A stretch of 64,000 nt of DNA from Alphaproteobacteria bacterium. GTDB lineage: Bacteria; Pseudomonadota; Alphaproteobacteria; Micropepsales; Micropepsaceae. The DNA is taken from assembly GCA_013140995.1 (NCBI GenBank), contig JABFRX010000097.1, forward strand, positions 8,194 to 72,193. The letters run 5' to 3'. Under the pieces are notes generated by a model, which saw only the letters and a program-made list of their open reading frames with translations, was not told where the DNA came from and searched no databases. Both the position numbers and the translations under genes were made by a program. This document shows positions 8,543 through 34,794 of the stretch, piece by piece (the first letter of the stretch is position 1; each line of letters starts with the position of its first letter).

Positions 8543-10276
8543 ATGACCACCATTTCCCGCGTTTCGTTTCGTGAATCGCTGACCACCTCCGCCGCGATCG
8601 CCGCGCTGCTCGTCGGCGTGCTGTTGCTTGCCGGATGCGATCAGCGCGTCAGCGAAGGCGAAACCGACGCGAAGGCGCCGGAGAAGAACAAGCTCAGCCC
8701 GAGAGAAATTAAAGACGATACCGATCAACTCTCAACCGATGCAGCCACAGCGCCGGAGCCAAGCATGCGGGGATTTGCCTCCGCGCCGCCACCGCCGTTG
8801 ATGCTGCCGCAGCCGGAGGTGCGCGACAAATTTCCGGATGCAAAGCCCAATCCGGTGAAGCTGGTCGCTGAGGAGCCGGTTTCGACGTTCTCGGCCGATG
8901 TCGATACGGCGTCCTATACGGTGGTCCGGAAGTTCTTAAACGACGGCGCACTGCCGCCTGCCGACGCCGTGCGCATCGAAGAGATGGTGAACTACTTCGA
9001 CTACAGCTATCCCCTGCCCGACAATCGCGCGCAGCCGTTCCGGCCATCCGTCGCCGTCTACCAGACGCCTTGGAATCCGGACACGCAGATCGTGCACATC
9101 GGCATCAAAGGCTTCGACATTCAACGCAGCGAGCGGCCGACGGCGAATCTTGTGTTCCTTCTCGACGTGTCGGGATCGATGGACGAGCCGAACAAGCTGC
9201 CGCTGGTGAAAAAGGCGATGCGGATGCTTGTCAACGAGCTCGACGCGAAGGATCGGGTGTCGATCGTCGTCTATGCCGGTGCTGCGGGTGTGGTGCTTGA
9301 GCCGACACCGGGGTCGGAGAAGGGCAAGATTTTGGCCGCGATCGACGATCTGACACCCGGCGGATCGACGGCCGGTGCCGAAGGCATTCGTCAGGCCTAT
9401 CAGCTGGCGCGGTCCGGCTTTGTCAAAGATGGTGTTAATCGCGTGATCCTGGCGACCGACGGCGACTTCAATGTCGGCATCACCGATCCGAACCAGCTTG
9501 AGGATTTCGTGGCGCGCGAACGTGAGAGCGGCGTGACGCTGACTTGCCTTGGGTTTGGCATCGGCAACTACAACGACGCCTTGATGCAGAAGTTGGCACA
9601 GAAGGGTAATGGCAACGCCGCCTATATCGACACGATAAACGAGGCGCGGAAGGTGCTGGTTGAGCAGATTGGCGGCACGTTGTTCACGATTGCGAAGGAC
9701 GTGAAGTTCCAGATCGAGTTCAATCCGTCGCGGGTGAGCGAGTACCGGTTGGTTGGCTATGAGACGCGGCTGCTTAATCGCGAGGACTTCAACAACGACA
9801 AGGTGGATGCGGGCGATATCGGTGCGGGACACGCTGTGACCGCGCTCTACGAGATCGTGCCTGCGGGATCGAACGGGCATTTGATGGACCCGCTGCGCTA
9901 TCAGTCGAAGACGCCGGTGGTGCCCACGAGTTCGACCGGCGAGATTGCGTTCTTGCGTATGCGCTACAAACTGCAGGCGGAGAGCCAGAGCCGGCTGATC
10001 GAGCGGCCGGTGACGGACCGCGACAAGGTCGAAGACGTGCGCGGTGCGGGCGAGGACTTGCGGTTTGCTGCTGCGGTCGCCGGGTTCGGGCAGTTGTTGC
10101 GCAACGATCCTTACATGAAGAACTTCGGCTACAAGGACGTGGCCGAGTTGGCGAACGGCGCGAAGGGACGCGATCCGTTCGGCTATCGCTCAGAGTTCGT
10201 GCAGCTGGTGAAGCTCGCGCAGGCGCTGCCGTCGATCCCGGCGCTCGAGCAAGACGGCCAGGGCGGCCCGGATTAG
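8543..10276 (+). CDS. von Willebrand factor type A domain protein (YfbK-like, lipoprotein-type N-terminus)
   Basis: LLLAGC lipobox and MIDAS motif LLDVSGSMDEPNKLPLVKKAM. Also GGSTAGAEGIRQAY and ILATDGDFNVG, plus a C-terminal region typical of YfbK-like proteins. Confidence 0.85.
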   Translation: MTTISRVSFRESLTTSAAIAALLVGVLLLAGCDQRVSEGETDAKAPEKNKLSPREIKDDTDQLSTDAATAPEPSMRGFASAPPPPLMLPQPEVRDKFPDAKPNPVKLVAEEPVSTFSADVDTASYTVVRKFLNDGALPPADAVRIEEMVNYFDYSYPLPDNRAQPFRPSVAVYQTPWNPDTQIVHIGIKGFDIQRSERPTANLVFLLDVSGSMDEPNKLPLVKKAMRMLVNELDAKDRVSIVVYAGAAGVVLEPTPGSEKGKILAAIDDLTPGGSTAGAEGIRQAYQLARSGFVKDGVNRVILATDGDFNVGITDPNQLEDFVARERESGVTLTCLGFGIGNYNDALMQKLAQKGNGNAAYIDTINEARKVLVEQIGGTLFTIAKDVKFQIEFNPSRVSEYRLVGYETRLLNREDFNNDKVDAGDIGAGHAVTALYEIVPAGSNGHLMDPLRYQSKTPVVPTSSTGEIAFLRMRYKLQAESQSRLIERPVTDRDKVEDVRGAGEDLRFAAAVAGFGQLLRNDPYMKNFGYKDVAELANGAKGRDPFGYRSEFVQLVKLAQALPSIPALEQDGQGGPD

Positions 10277-10319
10277 AGGTGCGCGACTTCGAACCTTGCG
10301 GACGTTACTAGGCTCGCAA

Positions 10320-10373
10320 GGTTCACCACAAAGCCACGAGGGTCACGAAGAAATGAAATGGCGCTTCGCGCCG
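10320..10373. repeat. Left arm of a 54-bp inverted repeat flanking the GxxExxY gene
   Basis: GGTTCACCACAAAGCCACGAGGGTCACGAAGAAATGAAATGGCGCTTCGCGCCG matches the reverse complement of 10797-10850 at 49 of 54 positions (hand alignment). Confidence 0.9.
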
Positions 10374-10383
10374 GGAGGTTGGG

Positions 10384-10785
10384 ATGGAGGCTGTCGTTCG
10401 GAACCCGATTCCGGCGGAGTTGGAGAAAATCGCGACGGATGTCGTGGATGCGGCCTTTAAAGTGCATGTTGCGCTGGGACCTGGATTATTGGAGTCCGCT
10501 TACGAGAGATGTTTGGCGTTCGAACTTGAGCGTCGTGGACACGTGGTGCAGAGGCAGCTTGAGCTGCCAATCCACTATGACGGCTTCAAGCTTGATGTAG
10601 GCTACCGGCTCGATCTGTTGGTCGACGACGTAATCGTGGTCAAGGTGAAGGCGGTTGATAGTCTGATCCCAATCCATCAATCCCAACTGCTTACCTACCT
10701 AAAGCTGTCGGGCCGCCGTCTCGGTTTCCTAATGAACTTCAACGTCCGCCTCTTCAAAGAAGGGCTTCGGCGCGTTGCACTCTAA
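10384..10785 (+). CDS. GxxExxY protein (PD-(D/E)XK nuclease superfamily, PDDEXK_3-like)
   Basis: GPGLLESAYERCLAFELERRG contains the GxxExxY signature, followed by YRLDLLVDDVIVVKVKAV...HQSQLLTYLKLSG. 133 aa. Confidence 0.85.
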   Translation: MEAVVRNPIPAELEKIATDVVDAAFKVHVALGPGLLESAYERCLAFELERRGHVVQRQLELPIHYDGFKLDVGYRLDLLVDDVIVVKVKAVDSLIPIHQSQLLTYLKLSGRRLGFLMNFNVRLFKEGLRRVAL

Positions 10786-10796
10786 GGCTAACGGAT

Positions 10797-10850
10797 CGGC
10801 GCGAAGCGCCATTCTTTTTCTTGGTGACCTTCGTGGCTTTGTGGTGAACC
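10797..10850. repeat. Right arm of a 54-bp inverted repeat flanking the GxxExxY gene
   Basis: CGGCGCGAAGCGCCATTCTTTTTCTTGGTGACCTTCGTGGCTTTGTGGTGAACC; see the left arm. Confidence 0.9.
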
Positions 10851-10860
10851 ATTCTTCCTG

Positions 10861-10900
10861 CCTCACCAAAACAAAAGGGCGGCTGGTGAGGCCGCCCTTT
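10861..10900 (-). terminator. Rho-independent terminator of autotransporter 1 (could act bidirectionally)
   Basis: On the minus strand: GGGCGGC-CUCACCA-GCCGCCC followed by UUUUGUUUUGG. The downstream UGGUGAGG is complementary to the hairpin loop. Confidence 0.75.
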
Positions 10901-10921
10901 CGGTGTCTAGACTCGCTCGCG

Positions 10922-13900
10922 CTACCAGGTGGCGCGGAGGCCGGCTGAGGCGCCGTGGGTGTTCATGCTGCTCGAGAACAGGCCGTTGTAGTCGAGGAAG
11001 ACGGTGACGTTCTTCGAGACCTGGGCGCCTAGCCCCAAGTTTGCGACGATCGTGTCGCGCGCCTGGTCGGCGGAGATGATCTGGAACTGCGTCGCGGGGT
11101 CTTCGAGGAACGCGGCCGCGAACGACTGGTTCTCGTCCAGGAACTCGTGGCGCCAAGCGATCTCGGCCACCGGCACGAGGCGCACGCCGCCCGCTTGCCA
11201 CGCGCCGGTCAGACGCAGACCCAGCGTGGTGGAGAGGCTGTCGGCATCGGAGTCGGCGACCAGCAAGTTGAACGCACCGGCACCCGATTCGACGAAGCCG
11301 TCGGTCGAGGTCGAGGCGTAGGCGAGCCCTAAGAACGGCGTGAAGTCGATGCGGCCGCTGTCGAAGATCATGCCCGCTTCCGTGCGCACGCCGAATGCGT
11401 TCGCGTCGTAATTCGCGGTGGCGACGACAGGCGGGTTCAGCGTCACGTCGATCAGGCGCGTCGCGCTGATGTCGTGGAAGCCGAAGCCGATCTGCGCGTC
11501 AGCGTACCAGGACTTGCCGGTGTAGCCGCCGTAGCCTGCGAATTGGAACGTGTCGATGTCGGCGCTGTCGCGCAGCGTGTCGAACTCGACGTCCGTCGAC
11601 GACCAACCGATCGCGCCACCGATGTTCCAGCGACTGTCGACCGCGAAGTCGAGACCGCCCGCGAAGCCGCCGGTGTCTTGGCTGTAGCCTGCCGCTTCGG
11701 CGTCGCCGTCGCTCTCCGTCCAGGCGCCGTAGCCGCGACCCCAGATCGACATGCCGCCGCGCATACCCATCGCGCGCGCCGGGGCGTCACTCGCCACGTT
11801 TGGCGGCGCCGCGTCAGCGTAACGGCGGAGTGCCAATTCAGCGGTTTGAGAGGCGCCCGGGCCGCGCATGTCATCAAGACGTCCGCCGACGGCGTCGTTG
11901 AAGCCTTGGCTGACACGCAGGCCCGCTTCCTGGACGCTGGCATGTTCGGAGCCGCCTATATCGTCGTAGACGCGCGCGACTTCTGCTTCCGAGCCGACCG
12001 GAATGCTCAAGAGGTAGTTGAAGAGGTCGGTAAAGTCGGCGCTGTAGCCGCCGGCGTTGTAGATGCCTTCGAGCGTGCCGCCGATCGTCGTTTGGTTTTG
12101 CGAGAGGCTGGTCAGCGCCAGTGCGGTGCTGAAACCTTGGCGCGTCAGCGTGATGTCGACGTCGCCTGCGTTCACTGTCGCGACGCCGCCGAAGAAGATC
12201 GAGCTCGTGTCGATCGTGCCTGCGTTCGTGAAGGTGCCTGCAATCGCGCCCGTGATTACGTCCTGATAAACGAACGTGTCGCCGCCGATCGAGGCAAACG
12301 TGTCGCCTTGGACGTAGGCTGCGATCCGGCCGCCGAGGTTCGCCGTGCCCGCGGTGATCGTTGCGTGTTGGGCCGTGTTCGACGTCAGCTGGAATTCGAG
12401 CGTTCCGGCGGTCTGGGTGTAGGTGCCGACGTTCACCGTGGTGTCGTCGTCGAGATAGACTGTGCCCGAACCGCTGTGGGTCATGCTTGTCGCGGTGACC
12501 GCAGCGCCGGCACCCGTCGAGCCGCGTAGCGCGCCGCCGATGACAGCGGTGCCCGAGCCCAGCATGTCGAACTGGTCGAGGCCGGTCGCCGTGCCGCGCA
12601 GGTATGAGAACGTGCCCGAGGCATGCATGATGAAGTCGTCGGTGCCGCCGGCGGTGACGTCGCCGTCGAGCGTGCCGCCGTCGCCGTTGAACGTGGAACC
12701 GTTGGCGAGATTGAGCGCCGTTCCGACAATCGTACCCGCGCCGCCGCGGATGAGTCCTGCCGTTTGCGTGATCGTAGCGGCCGTGGCGCCGGTTACATTG
12801 ATGCCGACGCCGGTCTGACCGATGATCGTACCCGATGTGACGATGCCGCCCGATACCGAGCCGGACACCTGCACGCCATCCACGCCGCCATCGATCGTGC
12901 CTGTGTTGGTGATCGTGCCCGTAATCGGGCCGGTGACGTTGATGCCGTTGCTCGCTGCGTTGACCGTGCCCGCGTTGACGACGTTGCCGGTGAGCGCCGC
13001 GCCGCTCGTGACGATGCCGTCGCGACCGGCATCGATCAGCGCATTGTTCGTTAGGTTGCCCGTGAACGCGGTGGCGTTCACGACGACGCCGTCGCGGGTG
13101 GCAGAGACAATTTCACCGTCGTTCGTGACGTTGCCGGTGAACGAGGTGCCGCCGACGATGACCGCGTCAAGGTCGGCGCTGATCTGGCCGGTCGCGTTGT
13201 TGACGATGTTGCCCGTGAAGGCAGTCGCGCCAGTCAACACGATGCCGAAGGACGACGTATTCTCGCCTAAAATTTGGCCGGAGTTTGTGATGTTGCCGTT
13301 GAACGTCGCGCCGCTGATCAGCATCGCGGTCGCGGATGTGCCGGTGACTTCGATAATCCCGGTCGTGCTGTTCGTAATGCCCCCCGCTATCGTGCCCACG
13401 AGAAGCTGAATGCCGTTCGCCGAACCCTGGCCCTCAATCAGGCCGTGGTTGGTGATACCGCCTTTGAGCTGTCCGCCCGCGCTATTCATCTGCATCGCTG
13501 CCGTCGTCGTGCCGCGGATGACGGCGCCTGCGCTGTTCAGGATGCCACCGCGGAGTTCGAGCGAGGCGCCGCTCATGTCGATGCCGATCGCGCCCTCGAT
13601 CAATTCGTTGTTCTGAACGCCGCCGTTGATGTCGCTGCCCGCGCCCATGAAGATGCCGGCCGTGCCGCCGATGATCGTGCCGTCGTTCAGGAAGCCGTTG
13701 TCGAGCGAGCTGTCTGTGTCGAGGAAGAAGCCGTAGTTGCCGCCATCCAGCGTTCCTGTGTTCGAGAAGCCGCCGTCGACCTGCGAGTTCGCTTGAACTG
13801 AGATGGCGTTGTTAACCGCAAGCATTTGGCCGACGTTCGTGATGGCGCCCGCTAGGTAGCTGCTGTCGACCAGAAGCGCATCCGTCGGCGCGTTCATGTT

Positions 13901-14110
13901 CAGACCGTTATAGAAACTGTCGCCGTTCGCATCGGCGTAGACCGTCGCGTTGGTGTCGATGATGACGAAATCGGTTTCGGTGTTGACGATCGCGTCGCTG
14001 GGCAACGGGCCCGAGACGGTTGTCGATGCCGATGCCGGGCTTGCCGCGAACGCCGCAACGACAGCGATAATGGATGCACCGGACAGTAACTTCTTCGAAC
14101 GCGCGCGCAT
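10922..14110 (-). CDS. Autotransporter (type Va) with a beta-helical repeat passenger and a C-terminal beta-barrel
   Basis: Signal peptide MRARSKKLLSGASIIAVVAAFAASPASA (ATG 14110 preferred over the track start at 14209). About 20-aa G-x-I-T-N-x-G-x-I repeats. C-terminal barrel ending GLRATW. Confidence 0.85.
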   Translation of the reverse strand: MRARSKKLLSGASIIAVVAAFAASPASASTTVSGPLPSDAIVNTETDFVIIDTNATVYADANGDSFYNGLNMNAPTDALLVDSSYLAGAITNVGQMLAVNNAISVQANSQVDGGFSNTGTLDGGNYGFFLDTDSSLDNGFLNDGTIIGGTAGIFMGAGSDINGGVQNNELIEGAIGIDMSGASLELRGGILNSAGAVIRGTTTAAMQMNSAGGQLKGGITNHGLIEGQGSANGIQLLVGTIAGGITNSTTGIIEVTGTSATAMLISGATFNGNITNSGQILGENTSSFGIVLTGATAFTGNIVNNATGQISADLDAVIVGGTSFTGNVTNDGEIVSATRDGVVVNATAFTGNLTNNALIDAGRDGIVTSGAALTGNVVNAGTVNAASNGINVTGPITGTITNTGTIDGGVDGVQVSGSVSGGIVTSGTIIGQTGVGINVTGATAATITQTAGLIRGGAGTIVGTALNLANGSTFNGDGGTLDGDVTAGGTDDFIMHASGTFSYLRGTATGLDQFDMLGSGTAVIGGALRGSTGAGAAVTATSMTHSGSGTVYLDDDTTVNVGTYTQTAGTLEFQLTSNTAQHATITAGTANLGGRIAAYVQGDTFASIGGDTFVYQDVITGAIAGTFTNAGTIDTSSIFFGGVATVNAGDVDITLTRQGFSTALALTSLSQNQTTIGGTLEGIYNAGGYSADFTDLFNYLLSIPVGSEAEVARVYDDIGGSEHASVQEAGLRVSQGFNDAVGGRLDDMRGPGASQTAELALRRYADAAPPNVASDAPARAMGMRGGMSIWGRGYGAWTESDGDAEAAGYSQDTGGFAGGLDFAVDSRWNIGGAIGWSSTDVEFDTLRDSADIDTFQFAGYGGYTGKSWYADAQIGFGFHDISATRLIDVTLNPPVVATANYDANAFGVRTEAGMIFDSGRIDFTPFLGLAYASTSTDGFVESGAGAFNLLVADSDADSLSTTLGLRLTGAWQAGGVRLVPVAEIAWRHEFLDENQSFAAAFLEDPATQFQIISADQARDTIVANLGLGAQVSKNVTVFLDYNGLFSSSMNTHGASAGLRATW

Positions 14111-14327
14111 GAACCTTCCCCTTGCATTGACACTTTGATGGCCGGGGAGGCCTTGGCCGCGCTCCTGCCCCAGGAACGCGGCCAACCCTTCGCCGTCGAA
14201 CATCGTCACGTTCGGGGATAGGTCGTTAATCCTACCAACTTCTTAACTGGCCCTGCGGTTGGTGGGAATTCGCTAAGAACTGTGTTCGCGCCAGGCCTAG
14301 TTGTTGTTGGCGGGTCACAGAAACGGC

Positions 14328-14355
14328 GAAGGGCGGCCCGGTGGGACCGCCCTTC
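14328..14355 (-). terminator. Terminator-like hairpin after autotransporter 2
   Basis: GAAGGGCGG...CCGCCCTTC, a 9-bp stem similar in sequence to the 10877 hairpin. The U-tract is weak. Confidence 0.5.
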
Positions 14356-14384
14356 TGATCGAGAGAGAAGGAGTGATTCGCGTC

Positions 14385-17300
14385 TTACCAGGTGACGCGG
14401 ACGCCGCCCGATGCATTTGTGAGCGAGGCGTCGGCATTGTACTGGCCGTTGACGTCGAAGAAGACTTCGAAGTTCTTCGTCACGCCGAACGTCGCGCCGC
14501 TGGAGACGACCAAGCTGTCGGCCTTCACCTGCGAGGAGACGATCGACATCACGACCGAAGGATCGTCGATGAACGCGGCGTCGAACGTAGCGTTGTCGTC
14601 CAGATACTCATGACGCCAGCCGATCTTGAAATCGGGAACGACCGGGGTCTTGGCCATCATCCATTGACCGGACGCGCGCAGCGCGAGGGTGGTCGAGAGG
14701 CTTTGGCCTTCGGCGCCGCTGACGATCAACGCGTAGCCCGCCGGGCTCGTTTCGGTGAAGCCGGACGCACTTGAGTCGATGTAGGCGACAGCCAGCGACG
14801 GCTGCACGTTTACGCGGCCGAGACGCCAGATCGCGCCGAGTTCGCCGTTGACCGACCACGATGACGCATCGTAGCCCGCCGTCGCGATGTCGGAACCCGC
14901 GGGCGCCGGCAGATCGATCGAACGCAGCGTGCCGATATCGTGCCAGGCGTAGCTGCCTTGCGCATCGACATAGAAGCGGCCGAAGCCGTACGAGCCGAAC
15001 ACGTTGGCCTGCCAGGATTCGATGTCGGCCGTATCCGGCGAGGCGTCGAACCACATGTCGGATGTCGCGTACGCGATCGAGGCGCCGATCGTTTCGTTCG
15101 GGCTTAGTGCGTAGTCCACGCCGACGATGCCGCCTTGCGAGTCGTGATCGTAACCCGACGCGTCCGCATCGGTATCGACGTTGTTCTCGTTTTCGAAGGC
15201 ACGGCCCCAGACCGACCAACCGCTTGCGCCGCGGGTCATGCCTTGGCTTCCTCGGAGACCGCTGCTCGCTGCGTCTGACGCGACAGCGACGGCTTGTGCG
15301 TACTGCTGCCCGGGCGTACCCGACCAACGGACGCCGTCTTGGCTGATAAGGACGCTGTCGAGACGTTCACGCACCATGCCGTTGATCGAGTTCGTCAGGT
15401 TGTTCACGGCCTGACCCACTTGGGCGTGCTGCGAGCCGGAGAGTTCGATCAGCATCGCCTGCACCTCGGCCGTGGTGGCGGCGTCGAACAGAGCTTCGAA
15501 CACGTCCTGCAAGTCGCCCGAGTAGCCGCCTGCGGTGTAGATCGTTTCGAGTGCGTTGCCGACGGCTATCTGGTTGTGCGACTCGGCAACCAGGACATCG
15601 CCAAAGGCGAGGCGGTTCAAGATGAGATCGACCGTGCCATCGCCGTCGTATTGCGCGAAGCCGGTGAAGAACGGCGACGACGTGAGGATCGTGCCCGAGT
15701 TCGCGAACGTGCCGGTCAACGCGCCTGCGCTGATCACGTTGTTGTAGACGAGCGCGCTCGTCGTCGGGATCGGCGCCGCGGCCATTGTGGCCGGATCGAT
15801 GAAGGCGCCGACGTTCGCGCCGGTGATCGTGCCGGCTGCCGTCGAGATAAAGCCCGCGTCTTCGACGCCAGCCGGCAGGCTCACGTGGAATTCGATGAGG
15901 TCACCGGTGCCGACATTGAAGTCGTTCAACGTGATTGTCGTATCGTCGTCGAGGTAGAACTGCGCACCGACGCCGTTGCCGTACATGTGATCGGCGGTGA
16001 CAGTCACGCCAGCGCCGTCGATGCCGCGGGCGGATGAGCCTAGCACGAACAGGCCGGTACCGTCGTTGTCGAAGTGGAAGATGCCGGTTGCCGTGCCATT
16101 GCTGTAGGCGAACGTACCTGAGCCTGCGGCGCCGAAGCTGTCGGTCGTATCGCCGTTGATGTTGCCGCCGACGACGCCGCCCGAGCCGATGAACGTATCG
16201 ACGTCGCCGTTGACCATGAAGAGTGCGGTGGGTGCGGCGATCGATCCCGCTGTCTGCGTGATTGTGTGCCCCGCCGTCGCGCCGGACAGGTTGATGCCGA
16301 GGTTCGTGGCTAAGATGTTGCCGGAGTTACTGATGCCGCCGACGACCTGACCAGTGATGTTGAGGCCGGTGCCCGCAGTGATGTCACCGCCGTTGCTCAG
16401 CGCGCCTTGGACGAGGCCGCTGAGGAAGATGCCGGTGGCACCGACAGCGATATTGCCGTCGTTCGTGACGTCGCCAGTGATCGTGCCGTTCAGCGTGATG
16501 CCATTGGCGGTGGCGGTGAGGTTGCCGGTATTCGTGACGGACCCGTCGATCAGCGGCGCGATAAGCGCAATCGCCGTCGAGCCGGTGATGTCGCCGTTGT
16601 TCGTGATGTCACCGGTGATCGTTCCGGTGCCGAGCATGATGATGCCCTGGTTGAATGCGGTGATCGCGCCGTCGTTCAGAACGCTGCCGGTGAAGTCCGT
16701 GCCGGTCCAGCTGAAGCCGGCGCCGTTGCCAGCATTGATCAGGCCATCGGCGTCATTGACGAAGTCGCCGTTAAGGTCGGTGCCGAACACCGCGATGCCA
16801 GAGGAGTTTGCCGACGTGACGACACCGCTGTTCGTTATGCCGCCAGTAAAGGTCGCGCCATTTATCAAGATCGCGGTGTTGGAGGCTTGGATCGTGCCCG
16901 TATTCGAGATGCCGCCGGAAAACGTAGCGCCCGCTATCGAGATCGCGATGCCACTTGTGTTCGTCGCCGAGATGACGCCTTGGTTGTCAAGGCCTTGGGC
17001 AATCGTGCCACCATTCAGGCCAACGCCAATTCCACCGACGCCATCGGCGATGATCGAGCCGGTCGACTGATTGACGATCGATCCAGCTAGCACTCCACCG
17101 ATCAGCACGCCGTTGTCGCCGCGGATCGTGCCGGAGTTGTCGATGTTGCCGGTGACGGTGCCGCCGGCGATGTTGATGCCCGTGCCGCTTGTCGCAACGA
17201 TGCGTCCGCCTTCACGGTTGATGATCGATCCGGCGAGTACACCGGTCTGCATGTTGATACCGATGGACGTTGTCGCCCCCGACGAAAGAATGCGGCCGCT

Positions 17301-17984
17301 GTTGTCGATATCGCCGACCAGGGCCGTGAAGGAACTCAGGTTGATCGCGACGCCGTCGTCGGACACCAACGCCTGGATCGTGCCGGTAGAAGCGTTCGTG
17401 ATCCCGCCGATCACGACAACGCCCGCGCCTTCGAATGCAATGCCATCGGCATTGTTCGTGCCGAAGCCAATGATCGTCCCTTCGTTCGTGATGCCGCCGG
17501 TGACAATGGAATTCCCGGTGAGGAGAATGCCGTCGGTCTGGCCTTGAATTATGGCGGCCGTCCCCGAGTTCGAAATGGCGCCGTTGATGATCGAGTTGTT
17601 GATGAAGATGCCTTCGGTGCCTCCCTCGATGAGACCCGTGTTGGAAATGGCGCCGCCGATACTGCTTCCGACTATGTTGATGGCAGAACCCGTAATCGAG
17701 CCAGTGTTGGAGATTCCGCCATTAAGCGTCGCGTTCGTGATGTTCACGAACGACGTGAGCGTGCCACTGTTGAACAGGCTCACGCCGCCCGTGTCTGCCA
17801 AGACGAGCGATCCCGCTTGAATATCGATAAAGTCGTCGGAGACTGTGTTCGTCACCGGCGGATTCGGATTGCCGGCAGCCGTGATCGTCTGCCCGGCAAG
17901 TGCCGGATCGGCGGCCCCGAAGGCGGCCATGACGGCCAGCGTCGAGACGCCTGACAACAACTTCTTCGAACGGATACGGATCAT
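14385..17984 (-). CDS. Autotransporter (type Va), paralogue of the neighbouring gene
   Basis: Signal peptide MIRIRSKKLLSGVSTLAVMAAFGAADPALA (ATG 17984). Same G-x-I-x-N-x-G repeat architecture. Barrel ending GGVRVTW. Confidence 0.85.
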   Translation of the reverse strand: MIRIRSKKLLSGVSTLAVMAAFGAADPALAGQTITAAGNPNPPVTNTVSDDFIDIQAGSLVLADTGGVSLFNSGTLTSFVNITNATLNGGISNTGSITGSAINIVGSSIGGAISNTGLIEGGTEGIFINNSIINGAISNSGTAAIIQGQTDGILLTGNSIVTGGITNEGTIIGFGTNNADGIAFEGAGVVVIGGITNASTGTIQALVSDDGVAINLSSFTALVGDIDNSGRILSSGATTSIGINMQTGVLAGSIINREGGRIVATSGTGINIAGGTVTGNIDNSGTIRGDNGVLIGGVLAGSIVNQSTGSIIADGVGGIGVGLNGGTIAQGLDNQGVISATNTSGIAISIAGATFSGGISNTGTIQASNTAILINGATFTGGITNSGVVTSANSSGIAVFGTDLNGDFVNDADGLINAGNGAGFSWTGTDFTGSVLNDGAITAFNQGIIMLGTGTITGDITNNGDITGSTAIALIAPLIDGSVTNTGNLTATANGITLNGTITGDVTNDGNIAVGATGIFLSGLVQGALSNGGDITAGTGLNITGQVVGGISNSGNILATNLGINLSGATAGHTITQTAGSIAAPTALFMVNGDVDTFIGSGGVVGGNINGDTTDSFGAAGSGTFAYSNGTATGIFHFDNDGTGLFVLGSSARGIDGAGVTVTADHMYGNGVGAQFYLDDDTTITLNDFNVGTGDLIEFHVSLPAGVEDAGFISTAAGTITGANVGAFIDPATMAAAPIPTTSALVYNNVISAGALTGTFANSGTILTSSPFFTGFAQYDGDGTVDLILNRLAFGDVLVAESHNQIAVGNALETIYTAGGYSGDLQDVFEALFDAATTAEVQAMLIELSGSQHAQVGQAVNNLTNSINGMVRERLDSVLISQDGVRWSGTPGQQYAQAVAVASDAASSGLRGSQGMTRGASGWSVWGRAFENENNVDTDADASGYDHDSQGGIVGVDYALSPNETIGASIAYATSDMWFDASPDTADIESWQANVFGSYGFGRFYVDAQGSYAWHDIGTLRSIDLPAPAGSDIATAGYDASSWSVNGELGAIWRLGRVNVQPSLAVAYIDSSASGFTETSPAGYALIVSGAEGQSLSTTLALRASGQWMMAKTPVVPDFKIGWRHEYLDDNATFDAAFIDDPSVVMSIVSSQVKADSLVVSSGATFGVTKNFEVFFDVNGQYNADASLTNASGGVRVTW

Positions 17985-18315
17985 ATGAAATGCGCTCCCC
18001 AGCGGTGACGAAATCGGTTGGCTGGTTGGAAACGCGGGGCGCAGGATGGGCTGCGCATTCCCCCCGGAATCCACCGAATCAACCCTCGAATCCGGGATAC
18101 GTGGGTTAACGATTCACGTCTATCAGTGGGGGAGGTGGTTAATGCATTCTGCCAAACGTAGTGATTTTTCTACACCAGGTAGTTAAGAGACGTCTCGTTA
18201 CTATTCATAGCGTGCAGAGTTGTGAATTGACGGGGGTCTTTGTCTATGCGCGCGGGAATCCCGCGTGCTTTAACCTTGGTTAAGGATTCGCACGCGCGGC
18301 ACAGGGGCTTTTCGC

Positions 18316-25517: not shown

Positions 25518-25579
25518 CTACAGCGCGTGCCTGCTGTTTTTCTGCGGTTGACGGCAGGCGCGTTCGAGCCGACATTCCC

Positions 25580-27596
<2,017 letters not shown>

Positions 27597-34707: not shown

Positions 34708-34794
34708 TGGTGCCCCTGGCCGGAATCGAACCAGCACGTTGTCACCAACAACAGATTTTGAGTCTGCCGCGTCTACCAGTTCCGCCACAGGGGC
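34708..34794 (-). tRNA. tRNA-Leu (anticodon CAA), class II with a long variable arm
   Basis: Reverse complement: GCCCCTG-TG-GCGGAACTGGTAGACGC-...-GCAGA-CTCAAAA-TCTGT-variable arm-GCTGG-TTCGATT-CCGGC-CAGGGGC-A-CCA. Confidence 0.9.

Follow-up and report, generated by a model that had tools for sequence, protein, structure and literature searches.

The 64,000-nucleotide (nt) stretch of DNA analysed here, referred to as the window, belongs to contig JABFRX010000097.1 of an Alphaproteobacteria genome affiliated with the Micropepsaceae and contains, at positions 10320-10850, a compact cassette in which a single gene of the GxxExxY (PDDEXK_3) family is enclosed by two long inverted arms; this cassette is best read as a resident member of a large family of compact elements bounded by inverted repeats. 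The left arm (10320-10373) and the right arm (10797-10850), each of 54 nt and separated by 423 nt, are complementary at 49 of 54 positions (91%), with the five mismatches located in the middle of the arm (arm positions 21, 28 and 35-37); all remaining inverted repeats in the surrounding 1.6-kb region are 14 nt or shorter. The sole open reading frame (ORF) between the arms (10384-10785, plus strand, 133 amino acids) is set off from them by spacers of 10 nt (10374-10383) and 11 nt (10786-10796), the former carrying a Shine-Dalgarno sequence (read from the sequence as GGGAGG, 10373-10378, plus strand) 5 nt ahead of the ATG. On the left, the cassette is adjoined by a vWA/YfbK_C gene (8543-10276, plus strand) and on the right by the 3' end of an autotransporter gene (10922-14209, minus strand), both assigned by ORF and profile search; the terminator hairpin of the latter gene (10872-10902, minus strand) lies outside the cassette and forms the right edge of the insertion site. 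The guanine-plus-cytosine (GC) content of the cassette (0.53-0.58) is approximately 8-10 points lower than that of its neighbours (0.60-0.68), and no transposase was seen in the syntenic neighbourhood. In all these respects the first-pass annotation of this DNA, which had described nearly complementary arms with clustered mismatches around one closely spaced GxxExxY ORF, a position between the vWA gene and the autotransporter terminator, a lowered GC content and no transposase nearby, was borne out by repeat search, profile search and the gene and terminator coordinates.

The folding proposed in the same annotation gave a clear result: in the predicted RNA structure of positions 10300-10870, the arms form a single closing stem (minimum free energy of −262 kcal/mol versus −202 ± 6.7 kcal/mol for shuffled sequences, z = −8.9). 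The outer 31 nt of the arm occur at two sites only within the window (shuffles expect 0), and the arm pair reached a score of 41.5, compared with a maximum of 10.5 for the shuffled flanks of 79 cassettes (see below). Neither a second arm array nor a second GxxExxY gene was found in the 64-kb window. The comparison with Rfam yielded no match above the gathering threshold at the cassette, only chance-level matches at the terminator of the neighbouring gene, and no rRNA in the window.

The product of the ORF lies well above both profile cut-offs, scoring 134.4 bits against PF13366 PDDEXK_3 (Pfam, cut-off 22) and 134 bits against TIGR04256 GxxExxY (NCBIfam, cut-off 35), and the name-giving motif is present at residues 34-40 (G34-L-L-E37-S-A-Y40), the columns of which are invariant in an alignment of 21 sequences. 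According to the AlphaFold model (predicted local distance difference test score of 91; order of secondary structure elements H-H-E-E-E-H-E), the protein fold is that of the PD-(D/E)XK nucleases: The closest, albeit weak matches in PDB (TM ~0.5) are Cas4 SSO0001 (E = 3e-3) and lambda exonuclease, besides LHK exonuclease, the AdnAB nuclease domain and tRNA-splicing endonucleases. The PD-(D/E)XK catalytic set (E...D...ExK) is incomplete in the window protein, in which E37, D77 and K89 are present and the near-invariant E87 is replaced by lysine. Codon 87 (10642-10644) reads AAG (Lys) in the window, GGG (Gly) in the 98%-identical orthologue L006 (P0001) and GAG in the other orthologues; two independent replacements of the catalytic glutamate are thus found among four non-synonymous differences. 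Judged from this substitution (E87K), the window protein is probably not an active nuclease. A sequence search of PDB revealed no relative of the ORF, and PADLOC and PHROGs gave no match and thus no tie to known defence systems or phage families. The GxxExxY family comprises 19,305 clusters (50% identity, E ≤ 1e-3); the gene is present in 7 of 72,556 plasmid records, mostly megaplasmids, and no homologue was found among 50,697 phage records. Two-domain GxxExxY proteins of approximately 270-295 amino acids also exist (P0241-P0248 and others), possibly as fusions or through read-through of tandem cassettes. In the sole survey found, the function of GxxExxY proteins is given as unknown and multiple transfers are noted (PMC3424549).

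The enclosure of the gene by inverted arms is not peculiar to this locus. Among 79 unique cassettes with sufficient flanking sequence (derived from 80 metagenome GxxExxY loci sampled without bias and from others gathered in addition), flanking repeats built from the same kind of unit (called at a score of at least 14) were present in 56, compared with none of 79 shuffled controls: GxxExxY genes are specifically associated, throughout the family, with unit-built inverted repeats. The possibility considered in the first-pass annotation that other members of the family lack comparable repeats did not hold for most of these loci, nor for cultured Bacteroides, Sphingomonas and Bernardetia strains. 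In the orthologous vWA-GxxExxY-autotransporter loci from metagenomes (L006, L001, L002 and L238) the arms are conserved; their outer 29 nt, TTCACCACAAAGCCACGAAGGTCACGAAG, are nearly unchanged, whereas the intergenic flanks and synonymous sites have heavily diverged. Like arms were detected around distant GxxExxY genes (62-74% identity) in unrelated neighbourhoods (L007, L010 and L013), and among the distant contexts are one contig each of Sphingomicrobium and Rhizomicrobium and a locus beside the RNase P RNA. At L013 (2501-3322), 52 nt separate the end of the GxxExxY gene from a class-A RNase P RNA (Rfam, 296 bits) located downstream of it; here, an arm hairpin precedes the gene, and the right arm is missing. 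Among NCBI-annotated isolates, Bacteroides finegoldii carries the gene between radA and the gene of a flavin adenine dinucleotide (FAD) protein with 30-nt arms (TTCACCACAGAGGACGCAGAGGACACGGAG), and the gene of a Bernardetia isolate is likewise flanked by arms. On the megaplasmid of Sphingomonas parapaucimobilis YK209 (L252, 1164-1629), the cassette is situated within an operon for fatty-acid synthesis, in the gene order fabD-[GxxExxY]-fabG-acpP; here, the reading frame continues across the right arm and ends immediately ahead of the fabG start codon. Some ORFs are flanked on either side by tight arm hairpins in head-to-head arrangement with abutting outer ends (L007, 2432-2491 and 2894-2969; L158, 604-662 and 1057-1115), and three tandem hairpins follow the ORF in some cassettes (L221, 1874-2374, is in the set of examples). 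The abutting and tandem order of the arms suggests that elements insert beside one another. For P0109 (44 contigs), the ten places listed were all one and the same locus, with no sign of recent movement.

Both arms are composed of repeats of a conserved 9-nt unit, as opposed to arbitrary complementary sequence. The arm core follows the pattern TTCAC-CACNAAG-N-CACNARG-NN-CACNAAG, i.e. three units of approximately 9 nt, and is represented in the window by TTCAC-CACAAAG-C-CACGAGG-GT-CACGAAG in the left arm (10322-10350, plus strand), which is the part conserved across phyla, and by TTCACCACAAAGCCACGAAGGTCACCAAG in the minus-strand reading of the right arm (10820-10848). Across the family, arms consist of three, sometimes four such units (C-R-C-N-R-A-G plus a spacer of 1-3 nt); the outer end is always TT(C/A)ACC(A/G)C, and the purine-rich strand always reads inward. 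Units vary among elements (CACGAAG, CACAAAG, CACCAAG, CACAGAG, CGCAGAG, CGCGAAG, CGCCGAG and others), and are largely uniform within an element; in 36 of 43 elements, all units (100%) were of one type, either CAC or CGC. The partner arms disagree at 0.7-1.9% of the constant unit positions, compared with 22% at the variable NN positions and 15% in the spacers. In the window lineage, the CACGAAG of the left arm faces CACCAAG in the right arm, and this G/C disagreement is kept in all orthologues. Since the mismatches fall on non-conserved positions and this disagreement is itself conserved, it is the unit sequence, more than the pairing, that is constrained. Mismatches on the sense strand of the cassettes show no wobble bias (61 G·U versus 50 A·C), and the proportion is similar in arm hairpins located between co-directional genes (39 G·U versus 31 A·C). 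Taken together, the pattern speaks for sequence-specific recognition of the arms as DNA rather than for a simple RNA stem. The type of arm is loosely related to the protein phylogeny: Mean protein identity was 0.56 within and 0.54 between arm types, and the nearest-neighbour protein shared the arm type in 32 of 43 cases. Within an element the unit type, defined by CAC or CGC and by the two variable bases, is uniform over all six to eight units, yet it switches often among closely related proteins. Such uniformity within the single element is concerted evolution, the mechanism of which is not obvious.

Most occurrences of the arms are not associated with any gene. The exact 28-nt arm pattern TCACCACNAAGNCACNARGNNCACNAAG was found in at least 120 genome stretches of a collection with one genome per species, distributed over well over ten phyla (none in shuffled sequences); the type of arm is consequently not unique, whereas uniqueness within the genome had been considered as a possibility in the first-pass annotation. 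Carriers belong to the Planctomycetota, Chloroflexota, Acidobacteriota, Pseudomonadota (Alpha-, Beta-, Gamma- and Deltaproteobacteria), Bacteroidota, Gemmatimonadota, Verrucomicrobiota, Lentisphaerota, Negativicutes, Actinomycetes and several candidate phyla, cultured isolates included. The motif is also present in one archaeal metagenome-assembled genome (MAG; L154, Methanotrichaceae) and in 20 viral or proviral contig stretches of IMG/VR (L018-L037). The majority of the arm pairs converge on loops of 2-100 nt and so represent bare hairpins, which outnumber the cassettes by approximately 10:1. Every closely matching arm pair at a distance of 388-491 nt encloses a GxxExxY gene, either intact (L078, L086, L105) or decayed (frameshifted in L117). 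Among the mid-sized hairpin loops, 26 of 28 are devoid of a GxxExxY remnant, so that simple decay of the ORF does not account for most hairpins; the two with a remnant are both from L114, the loops of which (226-233 nt) retain the last ~45 codons. No other recurring protein cargo was found, the ORFs adjoining 103 arms being ordinary neighbouring genes, and neither Rfam family matches (eight hairpin loci) nor 16S or 23S rRNA signature motifs (~250 loci) were detected. Dispersed multiple copies exist in gene-less form: a SAR324 MAG contains a copy of ~240 nt on two contigs with unrelated flanks (L043/L108, ~81% identical across the loop), and a Lentisphaerae MAG contains one of ~190 nt on two contigs with different flanks (L082/L151, 87% identical); the decayed cassette on a third contig of this Lentisphaerae MAG (L117) and its hairpins have a genome-specific fourth unit, ATCGAAG, in common. 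The hairpins are situated between co-directional (29), convergent (10) or divergent (4) genes. None of 64 arm pairs was bordered by a direct flank repeat of at least 4 nt (2-nt repeats: 8 versus 4 expected).

The history of the window copy can be traced from its relatives. The vWA/autotransporter junction is empty in L240 (vWA 82% identical) and L241 (79%, chromosome OZ245761.1), in which ~70 nt and the same terminator separate the two genes; relatives with 87-90% identical vWA proteins carry the cassette, and in L238/L239 the ORF is frameshifted with both arms intact. The locus is hence not invariant among relatives, contrary to what the first-pass annotation had considered possible, and a single insertion in the ancestor of the closer relatives, with vertical inheritance thereafter, fits the distribution. 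The comparison of junctions that the annotation had proposed accordingly yielded the empty site itself; target-site duplication was not visible at the window site, and filled and empty sites are too diverged for base-exact boundaries. Relative to the orthologues, the ratio of non-synonymous to synonymous substitution rates (dN/dS) of the ORF is 0.05-0.09 at a dS of 0.77-1.6, and only 0-5% of the 58 nt that make up the two arm cores are changed, which indicates strong purifying selection on both ORF and arms. In the pair formed by the window and L006, dN/dS is raised to 0.26, and L006 has an additional L116P change. The window copy is therefore an old, fixed, vertically inherited and not a recently active insertion.

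In the reading preferred here, to which a probability of about one half is assigned, the GxxExxY protein recognises the arm units and spreads the element as DNA, by moving or by copying it. The protein would bind the repeated units of both arms as DNA, pair the two ends of the element and cut at or near them, whereupon the element would be moved or copied without target-site duplication. It would land mostly in short intergenic gaps and in the orientation of its neighbours, and would consequently be transcribed by read-through from the host. The window element would have inserted between the vWA and autotransporter genes in an ancestor of the organism, which is Micropepsaceae-like by the labels of its closest vWA homologues, and have been inherited vertically since, ORF and arms being long under purifying selection before the window lineage lost the catalytic glutamate. 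With this residue lost, the copy is probably immobile, and its arms therefore persist for a reason independent of the local nuclease. The gene-less hairpins are read here as non-autonomous partners, comparable to miniature inverted-repeat transposable elements (MITEs) or to REPINs (palindromic doublets of repetitive extragenic palindromic, REP, sequences). Transposition-type movement would explain the inverted ends composed of several units, comparable to the several transposase sites present at the ends of transposons, as well as the constraint at the sequence level, the MITE-like derivatives and the decayed copies. Among the interpretations offered in the first-pass annotation, that of a terminal-repeat element is accordingly the best supported by the recurring arms and the dispersed gene-less hairpins; the copy at this site, however, is old, single in the window, probably catalytically dead and devoid of a target-site duplication, and hence not a recently active insertion. 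The more far-reaching proposal, that a minimal PD-(D/E)XK protein recognising arrays of 9-nt units defines a so far unrecognised class of mobile DNA that spans phyla and moves without target-site duplication, is tentative and would at present be judged somewhat less probable than its contrary.

Several observations weigh against movement by the GxxExxY protein. Binding or cutting of the arms by the protein is an inference, and to our knowledge no transposition mechanism based on a PD-(D/E)XK protein only has been described. No recent insertion with a base-exact empty site was found, and the ends of the element are known to within a few bases. The arms are conserved despite a frameshifted (L238) or catalytically mutated ORF (window, L006); conservation beside such an ORF is unlike the behaviour of a purely selfish, cis-acting end, unless a trans-acting paralogue or a use by the host is assumed. 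The lack of further arm arrays in the window and the finding of identical proteins in one context only add to this, as do the rarity of the gene on plasmids and its absence from the phage records, by which a horizontal route is not apparent. The frequent switches of unit type among close proteins argue against a tight co-evolution of protein and site, and mobility at the DNA level leaves unexplained why the type is nonetheless uniform within each element.

As an alternative, the cassette might act at the RNA level in the manner of an rRNA intervening sequence (IVS): The duplex formed by the arms in a read-through transcript would be cut by RNase III or by the GxxExxY protein itself, the stem-capped ORF transcript would be freed from the host messages without harm, and the arms would be conserved for the sake of processing. 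The ORF-bearing IVS in the 23S rRNA of Coxiella and Leptospira, which are bounded by a terminal stem and excised by RNase III (PMC4990558), equal the cassettes in architecture (~430-530 nt, terminal stem of 28-54 bp, ORF of ~125 amino acids). In line with such a function, the arms close the minimum-energy fold of the window cassette and are kept even where the ORF is broken; the cassette ORF points the same way as the gene before it in 45 of 62 cases and as the gene after it in 41 of 57, at a median distance of ~72 nt from the upstream gene, and cassettes reside within operons (fabD-[GxxExxY]-fabG-acpP) with no promoter of their own. The tRNA-splicing endonucleases among the weak fold matches point in the same direction. 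The chemistry of the mismatches, however, lends no support to the RNase III-type duplex raised in the first-pass annotation: G·U pairs are not preferred over A·C on the sense strand, mismatches gather at the non-conserved unit positions rather than being avoided throughout, and a G·G mismatch is conserved. Moreover, the dispersed copies, the cross-phylum arm sequence and the presence/absence pattern would still require spreading at the DNA level, and rRNA motifs are lacking in the ~250 loci. An RNA-level cassette is consequently regarded as unlikely, though more probable than the other alternatives.

Clearly less probable again is a domesticated module, in which the arms, with or without a bound non-catalytic protein, would serve the host, e.g. 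as an insulating or stabilising structure where the vWA and autotransporter transcripts converge. The purifying selection on ORF and arms (0-5% change in the arms versus a dS of 0.8-1.6) would agree with a host function, the two independent replacements of the catalytic glutamate (Lys in the window, Gly in L006) would fit selection for a binding-only protein, and L238 has kept its arms despite the frameshift. Against this, L240 and L241 retain the gene pair and the terminator without the cassette, which is hence dispensable; the many contexts, decayed copies and bare hairpins form the pattern of a selfish element in the family as a whole, and the raised dN/dS of the window/L006 pair, together with L116P, looks more like early decay.

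Of similarly low probability is a passenger relationship, according to which the hairpins constitute an independent repeat family that another enzyme or a host process mobilises or maintains, and the GxxExxY genes are homing-type nuclease genes that insert preferentially into hairpin loops via arm homology. A PD-(D/E)XK homing endonuclease is indeed known with I-Ssp6803I, and the excess of hairpins over cassettes, the predominance of mid-sized loops without a GxxExxY remnant and the loose tie between arm unit type and protein phylogeny would be expected from such a relationship. On the other hand, GxxExxY is the sole recurring cargo, 71% of those GxxExxY genes that were chosen without regard to the arm motif possess arms of this kind, and no candidate for an alternative enzyme was seen beside the hairpins.

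A regulatory or terminator hairpin of merely local meaning, the last interpretation raised in the first-pass annotation, would account for the inner palindromes with their T-runs, which resemble intrinsic terminators on both strands, but is contradicted as a purely local stem and very improbable: the arms (54 nt, 423 nt apart) and their architecture recur family-wide in hundreds of unrelated loci, homologous cassettes are found within essential operons, in which termination would do harm, and the true terminator is already present in the empty sites.

The palindromes concerned are located at the inner ends of the arms. In the left arm, GGCGCTTCGCGCC (10360-10372, plus strand) is terminator-like on the minus strand and represents a lineage-specific extension of the repeat that is missing in L002; in the right arm, GGCGCGAAGCGCC (10798-10820, plus strand) is followed by a T-rich run and resembles an intrinsic terminator for the ORF on the plus strand. 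An additional small hairpin, GAACCTTGCG / CGCAAGGTTC (10291-10324, plus strand), lies just outside the cassette, with its end reaching over the outermost 5 nt of the left arm; it is restricted to filled sites, being kept in L006 and L001 and missing from L002 and L238, and would compete with the base of the long arm stem. Downstream of the cassette, two large tandem autotransporter genes (1095 and 1229 amino acids) occupy 10922-18074 on the minus strand. Elsewhere, the window contains a thiamine pyrophosphate (TPP) riboswitch (25579-25690) and two tRNA genes (2322-2395 and 34711-34794).

No description of a GxxExxY cassette with such repeats was found in the literature, most subscription journals being outside the search, so that a prior description is possible; the type of element is apparently undescribed, and there is a real chance of a new mechanism. 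With most members of the family boxed in by a like repeat that is also scattered as hairpins, a testable role emerges for these proteins, namely that of a nuclease acting together with its own DNA or RNA sites. In practical terms, the arm motif is a cross-phylum sequence that can be searched for directly, and the cassette family draws attention to a frequent origin of spurious small ORFs and of breaks in metagenome assemblies. If the protein mobilises the arms, a new enzymatic route to MITE-like repeats would be given; if the arms are RNA processing sites, the intervening-sequence idea would extend from rRNA to ordinary operons. Should the proposed mobile class be real, it would constitute a second, enzymatically unrelated counterpart of the REPIN/RAYT system (RAYT, REP-associated tyrosine transposase) and could explain the function of the GxxExxY family (~19,000 clusters) as well as the origin of ORF-bearing intervening sequences.

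Compared with known systems, the cassettes share partial features with several of them. Free-standing homing endonuclease genes are likewise small, co-oriented nuclease genes in short gaps that are present or absent at the same allelic site; they normally neither possess nor need conserved flanking inverted repeats or gene-less derivatives. A transposon of the DDE type, or a MITE derived from it, has terminal inverted repeats in common with the cassette, the only cargo of which is a PD-(D/E)XK ORF and no transposase gene. The bacterial MITEs Correia/NEMIS, ERIC and RUP have parents of the DDE type, generate target-site duplications and are each confined to one genus. The gene-less forms are MITE-like insofar as these MITEs, too, are short, intergenic, bounded by inverted repeats and often co-transcribed, and differ from them by the lack of target-site duplications (0 of 64) and by an arm motif that spans phyla. 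The 23S rRNA IVS encoding S23p resemble the cassettes in size, in the stem of at least 28 bp around one ORF, in a sporadic distribution suggestive of horizontal transfer and in a GC content below that of the host (PMC4990558). In contrast to these IVS, the window cassette is inserted between protein-coding genes and not within a 23S rRNA helix (9, 25 or 45), and its ORF belongs to PF13366 instead of the four-helix-bundle S23p family. From REPIN/RAYT, the cassette deviates by an ORF that matches PF13366 only and has a predicted PD-(D/E)XK fold in place of an HUH/Y1 (IS200/IS605-like) transposase, by arms that are 9-nt-unit arrays conserved across phyla, whereas REP sequences are lineage-specific, and by the lack of a hairpin population within the 64-kb window. 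Common to both systems are a single small gene of nuclease type flanked by inverted copies of a short repeat, the far greater abundance of this repeat as dispersed, gene-less palindromic doublets, insertion without target-site duplication, and the vertical inheritance of the gene under purifying selection.

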